Source: Escherichia phage vB_EcoM_HZ_ZJUN4
Sequence record: PP216085
Length of the DNA: 64,000 nucleotides
Reading direction: 5' to 3' (one strand)
Shown here: one piece after another, positions 43,089 through 51,742 of the stretch
Numbering within the stretch: the first letter of the stretch is position 1
Layout of the letters: the number at the start of each line of letters is the position of its first letter
The notes under the pieces: generated by a model
Told to the model about the DNA's origin: nothing
The model's input: only the letters and a program-made list of their open reading frames with translations
The model's database searches: none
Position numbers and translations under genes: made by a program

Positions 43089-43376
43089 ATGAAAACATTT
43101 AAAGAATTTACTTCTACAACTACCCCGGTTTCTACCATTACCGAAGCTACTCTTACTTCTGAAGTTATTAAAGCAAATAAAGGACGAGAAGGTAAACCAA
43201 TGATTAGTCTGGTTGATGGCGAAGAAATCAAAGGTACTGTTTACCTAGGCGATGGGTGGTCTGCTAAAAAGGACGGTGCTACAATCGTTATCTCTCCTGC
43301 TGAAGAAACTGCGTTGTTTAAAGCTAAACACATTTCTGCGGCACATCTCAAAATTATTGCTAAAAATCTTTTGTAA
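43089..43376 (+). CDS. ipI: internal protein I (IPI) precursor
   Basis: 95 aa; long CTS MKTFKEFTSTTTPVSTITE followed by ATLTSEVIKANKGREGKP, recognised. Confidence 0.85.
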   Translation: MKTFKEFTSTTTPVSTITEATLTSEVIKANKGREGKPMISLVDGEEIKGTVYLGDGWSAKKDGATIVISPAEETALFKAKHISAAHLKIIAKNLL

Positions 43377-43394
43377 TAAATATTTCACAAAGTT

Positions 43395-43424
43395 GTTTAC
43401 ATAGGGTTTTAGTTGTGATACTAT
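43395..43424 (+). promoter_or_regulatory. T4-type early promoter
   Basis: GTTTAC, 18-nt spacer, GTGATACTAT. Confidence 0.6.
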
Positions 43425-43452
43425 TACCCTATCAACTACTGAGGAGAATAAA

Positions 43453-43638
43453 ATGAAACGTTGTGAATTAATTCGAAATGTTGCTATTGCAATTTCTGCT
43501 TCTGCTTTTAGTTTTTCAATGTTTGTTGGATTTATATGTGGATTATTAACTACAGCAGAAAACGTTTTTTCACTTGTAGTAGCATTTTTAATTGGTTTAA
43601 TCGCTATTGTTATGGATAAAATTTCTAAAGGTGAATAG
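43453..43638 (+). CDS. small membrane protein (two predicted TM segments)
   Basis: 61-aa strongly hydrophobic ORF with its own early promoter. Confidence 0.5.
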   Translation: MKRCELIRNVAIAISASAFSFSMFVGFICGLLTTAENVFSLVVAFLIGLIAIVMDKISKGE

Positions 43639-43639
43639 A

Positions 43640-44017
43640 ATGTACAAAGTGTACGCGGATTATCAGGCTAATCCATCTAAAAAGCCAAGCTGTCAAATAG
43701 GATGGGCTCATGATACTTTGCTTGAAGCAGTAGATGCTGCTCAAAAATTGGGATATAAATATGTAGAGATTGTTCAACTTCCATCAGGAACAGTTATTAC
43801 TCTCGAAGAGTTTAATAATATTAAACCAAACTTTTTACTTTTTGCAGGTGATAATTATTATCCTCGTGGTGGATATGATGATTTGATTGCGTATGCTGAA
43901 ACAGAAGATGAATTACGCCAAATTATTGAAGACAATAAATCAAAACGATTTGGCGATAGTTTCGACTGGTGGCAAATCGTAAATGCCCATACACATACTA
44001 TTGTTGATAAAGGTTAA
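43640..44017 (+). CDS. hypothetical protein
   Basis: Start at ATG 43640 after the previous stop (track ORF 43607 overlaps the upstream gene); 125 aa. Confidence 0.5.
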   Translation: MYKVYADYQANPSKKPSCQIGWAHDTLLEAVDAAQKLGYKYVEIVQLPSGTVITLEEFNNIKPNFLLFAGDNYYPRGGYDDLIAYAETEDELRQIIEDNKSKRFGDSFDWWQIVNAHTHTIVDKG

Positions 44018-44019
44018 TA

Positions 44020-44307
44020 ATGATTCTTTATGCGAAAGTATCATCCATTGAAAATGGATATAAATATGATCAAGAAGCAGCTAAAGCCTTGATTGATGAT
44101 TATGGCATTTTAACATGTTTTGAAGTTGAAAAGGTTTACATTGACCGTTCATCTTCTCAAGTTAAATTAGTGAAGGAAGACCGTAAATTTAATACAGTAA
44201 ATTTTGATTTCTTTATTGAAACAGAAAAAGGTCCTCTTGAATATGATATTTTCAAGAATCCTTTGGGTCTTGAATGCATCGTAAATATGTATCATCATAA
44301 ATGGTAA
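44020..44307 (+). CDS. hypothetical protein
   Basis: 95-aa ORF tightly packed behind the previous gene. Confidence 0.5.
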   Translation: MILYAKVSSIENGYKYDQEAAKALIDDYGILTCFEVEKVYIDRSSSQVKLVKEDRKFNTVNFDFFIETEKGPLEYDIFKNPLGLECIVNMYHHKW

Positions 44308-44404
44308 ATATGCTTTAAGAATTATTTGTTATTATTAACTCATATCGCACTGATTAATACCCTCTATCATCAAGGGTTCTTGCTTGAGAGCCTTTGTTAA
44401 TAAT

Positions 44405-44477
44405 TGGGAATTAGCCAAGTTGGTAAGGCACTGGATTTTGATTCCAGGATGCAAAGGTTCGAGTCCTTTATTCCCAG
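44405..44477 (+). tRNA. tRNA-Gln (anticodon UUG)
   Basis: Cloverleaf folded by hand: acceptor TGGGAAT/ATTCCCA, anticodon loop TTTTGAT, T-loop GGTTCGAGTCC. Confidence 0.8.
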
Positions 44478-44478
44478 C

Positions 44479-49190: not shown

Positions 49191-49551
49191 ACCTTTGAAG
49201 TATGAATTAAAGCGCCAGATAATTTCTACCGATGTATTAATAGGTCCTGTTATACTCATATCATTTGTAATTCTATTGATTATTGGAGGTGTTTTAGATG
49301 TTATGACTGATATTGATTCTGGCGAAATACTTGTATTAATGCTAATTCTTCCATTAATAGTTCCATTTTTATTAGTACCTGTAAATTGGGTAGGATACTG
49401 GTATCAAGGAAGGCATTATCGTAAACGCGTACGTGATTGGAAAGCACAGTGTAAAAAGATTAAAAAGGAACACCAGCTTAAACTAGATATGTATGAATTT
49501 GATGAAATTATGAAATTTGTTAAGGAATCACGATGCAAAGGCCAAAACTAA
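49159..49551 (+). CDS. small membrane protein
   Basis: Start at ATG 49159 (MSKPSLY...); two hydrophobic segments, basic C-terminus. Confidence 0.5.
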   Translation: MSKPSLYLPSKPLKYELKRQIISTDVLIGPVILISFVILLIIGGVLDVMTDIDSGEILVLMLILPLIVPFLLVPVNWVGYWYQGRHYRKRVRDWKAQCKKIKKEHQLKLDMYEFDEIMKFVKESRCKGQN

Positions 49552-49895
49552 ATAAAGTCAAATATTCGCTTCCTGAGTCATTTTTAATTTTTGCTGTGGC
49601 GTTGGCTGCAGCTCTTGCGGGTAGTCTTTTTGGATTGTTAATTGACTGTCTTATTTTAAACATCGATGGCACAGTAAATATAATAGAAGTTTGGAGTGAA
49701 CTTCGCTATACTAAAATTATTTCATTATTTTCATTCTTTTGTATCATTCTATATTTTCATTATGATAATTTTAAAATAAATTGGCAAAGAAAAAAGGATT
49801 ACAAAATACAATTAAAAGAATATAATAGCTACATGTCTTATATTGAAAATGAATCAATGAAAGAGTTTGTGATTGATTGCAGGAAATTAAAATGA
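49533..49895 (+). CDS. small membrane protein
   Basis: 120 aa with two hydrophobic segments; overlaps neighbours. Confidence 0.5.
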   Translation: MQRPKLNKVKYSLPESFLIFAVALAAALAGSLFGLLIDCLILNIDGTVNIIEVWSELRYTKIISLFSFFCIILYFHYDNFKINWQRKKDYKIQLKEYNSYMSYIENESMKEFVIDCRKLK

Positions 49896-50332
49896 AAACA
49901 TTATCAGCTGGTATTATCTTTATGACAGAAGATAAAGATTTATTCATGGGACGGGTTACCGGTTCTCGTAAGTCTGGAATGATGGCCCATCGCTGGGATA
50001 TTCCAAAGGGCCGTGTAGAAAATTCTGATTTAAGCGCACTAGAGGCAGCACGAAGAGAGTGTTTAGAAGAGACTGGCTTTAGCAATTATAATCCAGACCT
50101 TCTAGAAGACCTAGGTGTATTTAAATATTCTAGTAATAAAGACTTACAGTTATTTTATTATACGATTCCAGTAGAGCATGAGATGTTTAGAAATTGCCAC
50201 TGCGAGTCTTATTTTGAAAATAAAGATGGCGTTATGATTCCAGAGATGGACGCTTTTGCTCTTATTCCTCGTACTCAGTGGCAATATGTGATGGGTCCTT
50301 CACTTTACCGAATAATGAACAACCTCTTTTAA
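49877..50332 (+). CDS. nudE: Nudix hydrolase NudE (e.1)
   Basis: 151 aa; Nudix box GRVENSDLSALEAARRECLEETGF; directly upstream of e in the window. Confidence 0.85.
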   Translation: MQEIKMKTLSAGIIFMTEDKDLFMGRVTGSRKSGMMAHRWDIPKGRVENSDLSALEAARRECLEETGFSNYNPDLLEDLGVFKYSSNKDLQLFYYTIPVEHEMFRNCHCESYFENKDGVMIPEMDAFALIPRTQWQYVMGPSLYRIMNNLF

Positions 50333-50368
50333 TTTATAAATACCTTCTATAAATACTTAGGAGGTATT

Positions 50369-50863
50369 ATGAATATATTTGAAATGTTGCGTATAGATGA
50401 AGGTCTTAGACTTAAAATCTATAAAGACACAGAAGGTTATTACACTATTGGCATTGGACATTTGCTTACTAAAAGTCCATCACTTAGTGTTGCCAAATCT
50501 GAATTAGATAAAGCTATTGGTCGTAATTGCAATGGTGTAATTACAAAAGATGAGGCTGAAAAACTCTTTAATCAGGATGTTGATGCTGCTGTTCGCGGAA
50601 TTCTGAGAAATGCTAAATTAAAACCGGTTTATGATTCTCTTGATGCTGTTCGTCGTTGTGCGTTGATTAACATGGTTTTCCAAATGGGAGAAACCGGCGT
50701 AGCAGGATTTACTAATTCTTTACGTATGCTCCAACAAAAACGCTGGGATGAAGCAGCAGTTAACTTAGCTAAAAGTCGATGGTATAATCAAACACCTAAT
50801 CGCGCAAAACGAGTCATTGCCACGTTTAGAACTGGTACGTGGGACGCGTATAAAAATTTATAA
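50369..50863 (+). CDS. e: T4 lysozyme (endolysin e)
   Basis: 164 aa; [33 protein letters not shown] recognised almost residue for residue. Confidence 0.97.
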
Positions 50864-50867
50864 AGTT

Positions 50868-50897
50868 GTTTACTTTCTCCTAGAACTGTGATAGTAT
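50868..50897 (+). promoter_or_regulatory. T4-type early promoter
   Basis: GTTTAC, spacer, GTGATAGTAT. Confidence 0.55.
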
Positions 50898-50934
50898 ATT
50901 CATAGTTACTAATTAAAATATTTAAAGGAACCAT

Positions 50935-51252
50935 ATGAAAACGTTTAAAGAATTTATTGCAGAATCTGCCCAAGGACAACGTGTAGAAGGCGGTTATATC
51001 TGGATTGAACAAGTTGAGCCGCCAAGTCGCACTTCTACAGGTAAATGGAAAATCACTGTTGATGGTCCTGGTGGTAAACGTAGGACTCTTAAAGAAATTA
51101 ACGGGTACTATGAAGAAGCTCTTTCTGACGCGGGTACTTATATGATGCAAATCATGATTAAAAACCCAGAAAATCGTTTTGCGGCTAGAGTTTTCCGCCG
51201 TATTGGAAATAAGCTTTATGATGCATATTCTAAAAACTTCCCTAAAGAATAA
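50935..51252 (+). CDS. internal protein with CTS (IPII/IPIII-type)
   Basis: 105 aa; N-terminus MKTFKEFIAE; locus next to e as in T4. Confidence 0.7.
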   Translation: MKTFKEFIAESAQGQRVEGGYIWIEQVEPPSRTSTGKWKITVDGPGGKRRTLKEINGYYEEALSDAGTYMMQIMIKNPENRFAARVFRRIGNKLYDAYSKNFPKE

Positions 51253-51268
51253 AAATTAAAGGATACAC

Positions 51269-51742
51269 ATGAAAACATATCAAGAATTTATTACTGAAGC
51301 AGCTATTAATTCTCAAATTATTGCTGAATCTTTTACTGATCTTTTGAAATTTAAAAAAGGACAGAAAATCACTGCTGTATTGGATGATGGTACAGAAGTT
51401 GAGATGGATGTACAGGGATATAATTATGCAGTAGATGGAAAACTGTATAATAAATCTCATGCTAAATTTGATTCATTTGACGACTTTGTTAATACAGTTG
51501 AAGATGAAAAAACTCGTCGATCCATTGCAACTGGTGATGCTAAGGTTCTTATGGCACATGGTCATGAACGCATTCGCGCTAAACAGAATAAAATGGGTGA
51601 AGATAATTTTGCATTAGTTGGTTATCAATCTGGTAAGCAAACTTATGGCTATCAGCGTACTGCTACCATGTATAATAAAAATGGTAAAATCGCTTTCGTG
51701 AATAGTAAAGGTTCTATTCAGTACGTTAAATCGTTCAAATAA
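51269..51742 (+). CDS. internal protein with CTS (IPII/IPIII-type)
   Basis: 157 aa; N-terminus MKTYQEFITE; locus next to e as in T4. Confidence 0.7.
   Translation: MKTYQEFITEAAINSQIIAESFTDLLKFKKGQKITAVLDDGTEVEMDVQGYNYAVDGKLYNKSHAKFDSFDDFVNTVEDEKTRRSIATGDAKVLMAHGHERIRAKQNKMGEDNFALVGYQSGKQTYGYQRTATMYNKNGKIAFVNSKGSIQYVKSFK

Follow-up and report, generated by a model that had tools for sequence, protein, structure and literature searches.

In phage T4, the capsid targeting sequence (CTS) at the N-terminus of an internal protein (Ip) directs the precursor to the scaffolding core of the prohead, the protease gp21 removes this leader, and the mature protein is injected with the DNA (PMC3012670, PMC9026906, PMC9391042). 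Among the type IV restriction enzymes, Ip1, Ip2 and Ip3 each inhibit a distinct GmrSD (PMC12373910). The internal proteins that T-even phages inject are first-strike inhibitors of modification-dependent restriction enzymes (PMC12373910; bioRxiv 10.1101/2025.11.20.689424), and each newly recognised member is a candidate inhibitor of some bacterial target. Here, we describe the CTS-bearing genes in a stretch of 64,000 nucleotides (nt) of Escherichia phage vB_EcoM_HZ_ZJUN4 (sequence record PP216085), hereafter the window, to which all coordinates refer unless another genome is named. Five such genes are distributed over three sites, and two of them (ORFs 45992 and 46591, named like the others after the first position of their open reading frame, ORF) lie outside the two described Ip loci, i.e. 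the interval between 57B and trna.4 and the vicinity of the lysozyme gene e, which hold ORFs 43089, 50935 and 51269.

Internal proteins are known to be diverse. More than 30 variants have been published for T-even phages (PMC2839356), "at least 10" internal proteins are counted as reported elsewhere, and many ip genes were found by their signal sequence (PMC12373910); the review of Petrov 2010, in contrast, is silent on internal proteins. The variants of the Ip4-Ip13 series (Repoila 1994; Comeau 2007), as far as they are described in PMC2839356 and PMC12373910, combine unrelated cargo with a conserved leader and occupy hyperplastic loci flanked by early-promoter/stem-loop repeats. Phage Bas37 encodes a CTS protein in its ipI locus, Bas37_0260, which blocks McrBC (bioRxiv 10.1101/2025.11.20.689424) and sets a precedent: recognised solely by its leader, it proved to be an injected inhibitor of type IV restriction. 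Finally, the PeSL cassettes of T4-type phages, named after their early promoter and stem-loop, are single-gene modules located between short regulatory hairpins and polymorphic by presence or absence (Arbiol et al. 2010, PMC2839356).

Judged by its sequence, the CTS-tagged repertoire of the window is a system of this known kind, and three of its five genes are named members. As a whole, we consider it likely that these genes form a hypervariable Ip complement, loaded and injected as in T4 and directed against restriction, whose sites would be the ipI locus (IPI), the position after e (an Ip10-type and an Ip4-type gene) and a two-gene block at the rnaC terminator. The count of five genes adds nothing new in itself. 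The useful result is the two widespread "hypothetical" genes in which, outside the catalogued Ip loci, a complete CTS is combined with late-promoter-type boxes.

The five genes and their relatives

An earlier note on this DNA had placed CTS-type N-termini at the five ORFs named above, on either side of the tRNA and e genes, and had suggested a motif scan at ORF starts. In a six-frame scan of the window, M-K-[ST]-[FY]-x-[EQ]-F had exactly five matches, every one of which coincides with the first ATG of a plus-strand ORF, and all five positions given in that note were correct (Table 1). The genes indeed flank the tRNA cluster (44405-45236) and e (50369-50863). The equivalent DNA pattern, ATGAARWSNTWYNNNSARTTY, was matched five times, whereas 100 shuffles that preserved the dinucleotides averaged 0.00 matches, and relaxing the motif added a single match, a chance ORF of 20 codons. 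Residue 4 is Tyr or Phe and residue 7 is Phe in all five, and a GGA-type ribosome-binding site is found 5-9 nt upstream of each. Four ORFs present [L/I]-x-E at residues 8-10, namely LNE (45992), LTE (46591), IAE (50935) and ITE (51269); in the long leader of ORF 43089 the predicted gp21 site is ITE at residues 17-19. The predicted mature proteins count 76-177 amino acids (aa) and are all basic (pI 9.0-9.6), resembling T4 IPI*, IPII* and IPIII*, and no significant pairwise similarity was found by BLASTP between the five beyond the leader.

The DNA is, by its matches, that of a T4-like phage, Tequatrovirus. The 9-kb region around the five genes matched 1184 phage records, all T4-like (Tequatrovirus), the best of them at 94-95% identity, and the run of plus-strand ORFs at 41-54 kb follows the gene order of T4: 57B, ipI, trna.4/.3/.2, tRNAs, e.8, e.6-e.3, nudE and e. 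T4-like gp21 and gp22 are both encoded, and the protease and scaffold needed by T4 capsid targeting are therefore present in an essentially T4-like form. Gene gp22 adjoins gp23 (11065-12630) and lies near gp20 (14791-16377), both recognised by Pfam.

Table 1. Features of the window discussed in the text; slashes in leaders mark predicted gp21 cuts.
Feature	Position	Strand	Remarks
T4-early-promoter-type element and AT-rich stem-loop	43016..43069	+	upstream of ipI; direct-repeat families D4 and D5
ipI, internal protein I precursor, 95 aa	43089..43376	+	100% aa identity to T4 IPI; phrog_4363 internal virion protein
rnaD and rnaC homologues with terminator hairpin (45915-45938)	45603..45947	+	95.4% to T4 71168-70825; left border of the block
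TATAAATA, T4 late-promoter consensus	45945..45952	+	immediately follows the terminator T-run; ORF 45992 starts 40 nt downstream
CTS ORF, 157 aa, MKSYAQFLNE/VVLNE/AS	45992..46465	+	predicted mature pI 9.2; phrog_2280 "unknown function", E-value 1.7e-54
Second rnaC-type terminator hairpin	46470..46502	+	33-nt exact copy of 45912-45944 (family D2); 97% to T4 70859-70827
AATAAATA, 7/8 match to the late-promoter box	46545..46552	+	38 nt upstream of ORF 46591; putative promoter
CTS ORF, 187 aa, MKTYAEFLTE/AAKLP	46591..47154	+	predicted mature pI 9.5; phrog_2280, E-value 3.4e-53
Terminator hairpin, different from the rnaC type, also ending GGGCTTTTT	47164..47182	+	right border of the block
CTS ORF, 105 aa, MKTFKEFIAE/SAQ	50935..51252	+	mature pI 9.6; phrog_3966; homologue noted "Ip10" in phage JLBYU22
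CTS ORF, 157 aa, MKTYQEFITE/AAIN, Ip4-type	51269..51742	+	mature pI 9.1; DUF7412; homologue noted "Ip4" in JLBYU22
gp22 prohead scaffolding core protein	12649..13458	-	Pfam PF25623 T4_CASP, E-value 1e-89
gp21 prohead core protease	13489..14127	-	PDB 5JBL (T4 gp21), E-value 1.7e-140, all 212 residues, handful of differences; Pfam Peptidase_S77

ORF 43089 had been described as IPI-like with a long CTS, and it is ipI itself; as in T4, it stands between 57B and trna.4. Its 19-residue leader, MKTFKEFTSTTTPVSTITE, ends with the ITE mentioned above and would be cut before A to leave a mature IPI* of 76 aa (pI 9.0), identical to mature T4 IPI* at 76/76 positions; Pfam IPI_T4 (PF11634, 180.1 bits, cutoff 25) covers precisely this part, residues 20-95. 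By this identity, the protein should inhibit the GmrSD of E. coli CT596. Early-promoter/stem-loop repeats of 54 nt flank the gene on both sides. Their second copy stands at 43382-43435 and their element begins with TTTCACAAAGTTGTTTAC; a 22-nt core recurs at 47307-47328 (before e.8) and 50852-50873 (before ORF 50935), and promoter-like matches to TTTACA-17-TACTAT occur at 43030, 43396 and 47324. These repeats look like the "IP-associated elements" reported at hypervariable Ip loci in PMC2839356, which attributes them to Repoila et al. 1994.

At the second classical locus, ORF 50935 takes the ipIII position directly after e, with an ipIII-type upstream promoter element; no Pfam family was found for it. 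ORF 51269 starts 17 nt downstream of its end and the two are probably co-transcribed, possibly from two TATAAATA boxes upstream of e that match the late-promoter consensus. ORF 51269 matches DUF7412 (PF24183, 319.4 bits, cutoff 27) over its full length, residues 1-157, as well as the internal virion proteins of phrog_3155 (E-value 6e-102). The set is similar to IPI, IPII and IPIII of T4 in its leader (MKT[FY]xEF followed by [L/I]xE), its small basic mature products, its gp21/gp22 machinery and its ipI and e-proximal positions, but it differs in that the IPII/IPIII site holds an Ip10-type and an Ip4-type gene and in that two more CTS genes occupy a site where T4 has none. With the variant Ips, as described in PMC2839356 and PMC12373910, it shares unrelated cargo behind a conserved leader and the flanking early-promoter/stem-loop repeats, and ORFs 50935 and 51269 belong to them by name.

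T2 also carries an Ip4-type gene. In record AP018813, this 157-aa ORF (4430-4903, minus strand, starting MKTYQEFITEAAINSQ) is mislabelled "valyl tRNA synthetase modifier", and many further labels near it were wrongly transferred.

The earlier note had taken five such genes for an unusually rich repertoire, which would amount to an exceptional, expanded arsenal specific to this phage. Indeed, five exceeds the number found in the homologous 57B-to-vs.8 region of T4 (3, as that note had said), T2 (3) and T6 (2). However, although phiR1-RT also has 3 in this region, the same interval holds 4 CTS ORFs in ValerieMcCarty04, 5 in JLBYU22 and 6 in both ECML-134 and F13076, and eight relatives from IMG/VR carry 3-7, or 4-7 where full flanks are present. 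Each of the five genes is moreover widespread, ORFs 45992 and 46591 matching 511 and 164 phage records, respectively, by tblastn, and the Ip4 and Ip10 types being found in several relatives; the large number of published variants also speaks against an exceptional set. On these counts, five is above the three textbook phages, mid-range for the genus and an ordinary number. An arsenal peculiar to this phage is therefore most improbable; what stands of the earlier claim is that there are five potential injected proteins, as candidates with CTS-type starts in a T4-like phage.

An insertion between rnaC and e.8

ORFs 45992 and 46591 are found in a block of about 1.2 kb (45948-47162) that is an insertion relative to T4, with junctions at GGGGCTTTTT/GG in the junction alignment. 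The T4-homologous sequence resumes at its right end (47163-47661, corresponding to T4 70855-70358 at 93.6%) and runs into e.8. The block reads, in order, terminator, TATAAATA, ORF 45992, terminator copy, AATAAATA, ORF 46591 and a different terminator. ORF 45992 is consequently bracketed by direct repeats, as the 33-nt terminator is repeated behind it.

This arrangement is recurrent in related phages. Among the 15 homologues examined, 12 are preceded by a terminator and then TATAAATA, those of Dhakavirus and Jiaodavirus included, and two more present AATAAATA. The latter box is kept before the 46591-type gene in 6/7 homologous loci of Tequatrovirus type that were examined, its counterpart in Tegunavirus being TATAAATA. 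The site is empty in T4, T2 and T6, holds one cassette at loci L007 and L009, and holds two in the present phage, in ECML-134, JLBYU22 and F13076, and at loci L010, L011 and L014. That relatives have none, one or two cassettes suggests that these are gained and lost when the terminator repeats recombine. In Salmonella phage F13076, ORF 45992 is 100% identical, but the genes of the ipI locus differ and an ipIII-type gene replaces the Ip4-type gene at the e locus. The PeSL cassettes resemble this site in being single-gene modules enclosed by short repeated hairpins, with presence/absence polymorphism among close relatives; they differ from it in that each gene here would follow an intrinsic terminator and then a late promoter, both recognised in the sequence, instead of an early promoter and a stem-loop.

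Two observations concern the surroundings of this site. The segment 45603-45911, on its left, is 95% identical to the T4 stable RNAs rnaD and rnaC (species 2 and 1), including the tRNA-like GGTTCGAATCC arm; no Rfam family was found in it, even at a permissive threshold. In the Yersinia phage fHe-Yen9-01 (Tegunavirus), two genes of the same type are adjacent at 1922-3037 in the opposite order and share one TATAAATA.

The tblastn matches listed for ORF 45992 are all labelled "hypothetical protein" or left unannotated, and those for ORF 46591 are labelled "hypothetical protein" or "Phage protein" or left unannotated. Similarly, in a collection of 5.8 billion proteins the source names of their relatives are solely "hypothetical" or "uncharacterized". 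Pfam gave nothing for ORF 45992 and only a sub-threshold match to cytochrome b562 for ORF 46591, and PADLOC and NCBIfam gave only sub-threshold noise. A deep profile search among 1.84 billion representatives retrieved only 12 proteins, of which the interpretable ones are all T-even-type; three long ones, with E-values of 5e-4 to 6e-6, look like low-complexity matches, and no origin of the cargo domain emerged from this search. The AlphaFold2 model of ORF 45992 (pLDDT 73) comprises a short three-helix N-terminal domain, a disordered Pro/Lys/Ala-rich linker (of which KPSGKPAPKADPKAAQEK is an example in the pair) and a long helical hairpin, and that of ORF 46591 (pLDDT 61.5) presents the same three-part architecture. 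No fold in the PDB matched the model of ORF 45992 at an E-value of 0.001 or below, and no hint of a function was obtained from the cargo domains. Close paralogy of the two genes was considered and rejected, BLASTP aligning the leader alone; we treat them as at most distant relatives, because both match phrog_2280 and share their predicted architecture.

This architecture could point to a structural task, the proteins being packaged to condense DNA in the manner of histone H1 or to assist the scaffold in the manner of gp67 or gp68. A disordered linker rich in Pro, Lys and Ala between helical domains, combined with a net basic charge, is found in both and would suit such a task. So would the near-invariance of ORF 46591 (95-97% identity across its matches), which is unlike an arms-race gene, and the apparent restriction of both genes to putative late promoters, while ipI and the gene at the ipIII site also carry early-type elements. 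On the contrary, the genes are dispensable in the lineage, since T4, T2 and T6 live without both and some relatives have only one, and accessory counter-defence genes typically show such a pattern of presence and absence. Moreover, variation is seen in ORF 45992, which has identity classes of 70-90% and a swapped C-terminal domain. Altogether, a structural or DNA-condensing role appears quite unlikely.

Conservation of the leader, possible packaging and role

At sequence level, ORFs 45992 and 46591 carry all the traits of CTS-directed internal proteins. The leader was surveyed further in 62 distinct CTS ORFs from 20 loci, with a scan pattern that fixed residues 1, 2, 4, 6 and 7; residues 8 and 10 are free in the strict pattern, which covers nearly all of the 62. 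Residue 8 is nevertheless Ile or Leu in 59/62 and residue 10 is Glu in 58/62. The Thr3 codons are ACT (14), ACA (13), ACC (12) and ACG (9), and this about equal use of all four ACN codons argues for selection on the peptide and not on the DNA.

In other genera, ORF 45992 has homologues that share only about 50% identity with it in the N-terminal domain and carry a different C-terminal domain. Their leaders read MKTYNEFLTE in Dhakavirus WG01, MKFKEFLAE in Jiaodavirus KpnM6E1, MLEYSEFLKE in Tegunavirus fHe-Yen9-01 and MLKFNEFLAE in a metagenomic member, and the neighbouring Tegunavirus gene, gp154 of fHe-Yen9-01, which has weak full-length similarity to ORF 46591, starts with MLQYNEFLKE. The positions conserved in these divergent leaders (4, 7, 8 and 10) coincide with those identified by mutagenesis of IPIII, in which residues 4 and 7 of the CTS serve targeting and residues 8 and 10 serve processing (PMC9026906).

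In fHe-Yen9-01, both genes of this type start with ML and not MK, the other Ip genes of Tegunavirus keeping MKTY. This ML-start leader is a variant of interest with regard to targeting competence.

These data bear on the possibility that the two proteins are not packaged at all, their CTS-like starts having travelled with the ribosome-binding site in a mobile cassette and their products acting late in the cytoplasm. The ribosome-binding site and the first seven codons are indeed alike in DNA among ip genes (direct-repeat families D1 and D3), the pair is bracketed by repeats as shuffled cassettes are, no annotation or proteomic record places either protein in virions, and VMC04_131, the Jiaodavirus protein at the equivalent site described below, went undetected in virions. 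However, the leader is constrained as a peptide while its synonymous sites are free, and it is kept in four other genera whose DNA cannot be aligned, where residues 4, 7, 8 and 10 are held and residues 2, 3, 5 and 9 drift. Of the five genes, the pair also has the most divergent 5' DNA (78% in D3, of which ORF 45992 is not a member), and a late promoter suits the timing of prohead assembly. We thus regard unpackaged, cytoplasmic products as unlikely.

Virion proteomes of relatives support packaging of the Ip4 type but not of the 45992/46591 family. VMC04_119 of Klebsiella phage ValerieMcCarty04, a clear homologue of ORF 51269, was abundant in purified virions, with 66 peptide-spectrum matches, and an IpII-like protein had 26 spectra. 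For Tequatrovirus itself, a literature search for virion proteomes yielded nothing of use, and the fPS-phage paper contains no proteomics. Virions of phiR1-RT, which lacks the 45992/46591 pair, contained IpII, IpIII and Gp134, a 52-aa CTS protein from the tRNA region, and Gp134 thus demonstrates that virions can contain the product of a CTS ORF from the vicinity of the tRNA genes. For ORFs 45992 and 46591, we consider packaging plausible and lean towards it.

ValerieMcCarty04 has another CTS ORF at the equivalent post-tRNA site, VMC04_131 (16202-16786, minus strand; locus L017). It encodes 194 aa with a leader one residue shorter, MKFKDFLTE, is preceded by a terminator and TATAAATA, contains a Pro/Ala/Lys linker and is weakly related to the family of the rnaC-e.8 site.

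The course of events, as transposed from T4, would be the following. Late in infection, each precursor would bind the gp22 core through leader residues 4 and 7 and be enclosed in the prohead, where gp21 would cut after [L/I]-x-E at residues 8-10 (after residue 19 in IPI). The basic mature protein would stay with the DNA, be co-injected and act in the new host before phage gene expression. While IPI would inhibit its known GmrSD target, the other four would most likely, by analogy, inhibit other modification-dependent restriction enzymes, such as other GmrSD subtypes, McrBC or similar. Bas37_0260 provides the precedent, although it differs in locus from ORFs 45992 and 46591 and is likened to them by its leader. 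The pair would constitute a third Ip locus that has escaped annotation, and its single-gene cassettes would be transcribed late. We advance tentatively, and with slightly less than even confidence, the wider proposal that the rnaC-e.8 site is a third internal-protein locus of Tevenvirinae, organised in insulated units, each with a terminator, a late promoter and a single gene, and that phrog_2280 is a new family of CTS-loaded, injected proteins.

Several points weigh against an Ip complement that is loaded, injected and directed against restriction. The virion presence, cleavage and injection of all five proteins are predictions by analogy with T4. Neither ORF 45992 nor ORF 46591 is named as an Ip in the records examined, though the lists of Repoila 1994 and Comeau 2007 may include the family; in this, and in being flanked by terminator hairpins and late promoters, the pair differs from the variant Ips as described in PMC2839356 and PMC12373910. 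The late-promoter boxes of the third site are matches to a consensus, that of ORF 46591 only at 7/8 positions. No peptide of VMC04_131, which occupies the same site, was found among the 135 virion proteins detected in the one usable dataset; this negative result is weak, because the ipI-locus CTS protein of ValerieMcCarty04 was also effectively undetected. Lastly, confidence in the structure models is moderate to low and that of ORF 45992 matched no known fold, so that an anti-restriction role of four of the five proteins would be assigned purely by analogy.

Should the proposal of a third locus be true, the phrog_2280 family of injected proteins would be present in hundreds of sequenced phages and absent from T2, T4 and T6, and its target may differ from the GmrSD enzymes inhibited by Ip1-3. 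Surveys that consider only the classical pair of loci, or only T2, T4 and T6, would then undercount the injected repertoire. The leader offers a simple rule for annotators, and the pair two concrete candidates for experimentalists.

Other features of the region

No match to the segB homing endonuclease, T4 e.7 or T4 e.2 was found in the window. Genes denV, ipII and ipIII are likewise absent from it, e being followed by the two Ip genes and then by homologues of vs.8 and vs.7 (50863-52422). The tRNA cluster comprises 10 genes (Gln, Leu, Gly, Pro, Ser, Thr, Met-CAT, Tyr, Asn and Arg), compared with 8 in T4. Between tRNA-Arg and the rnaD homologue lies an ORF of 116 aa (45253-45603), and T2 presents an ORF of equal length at the same position.

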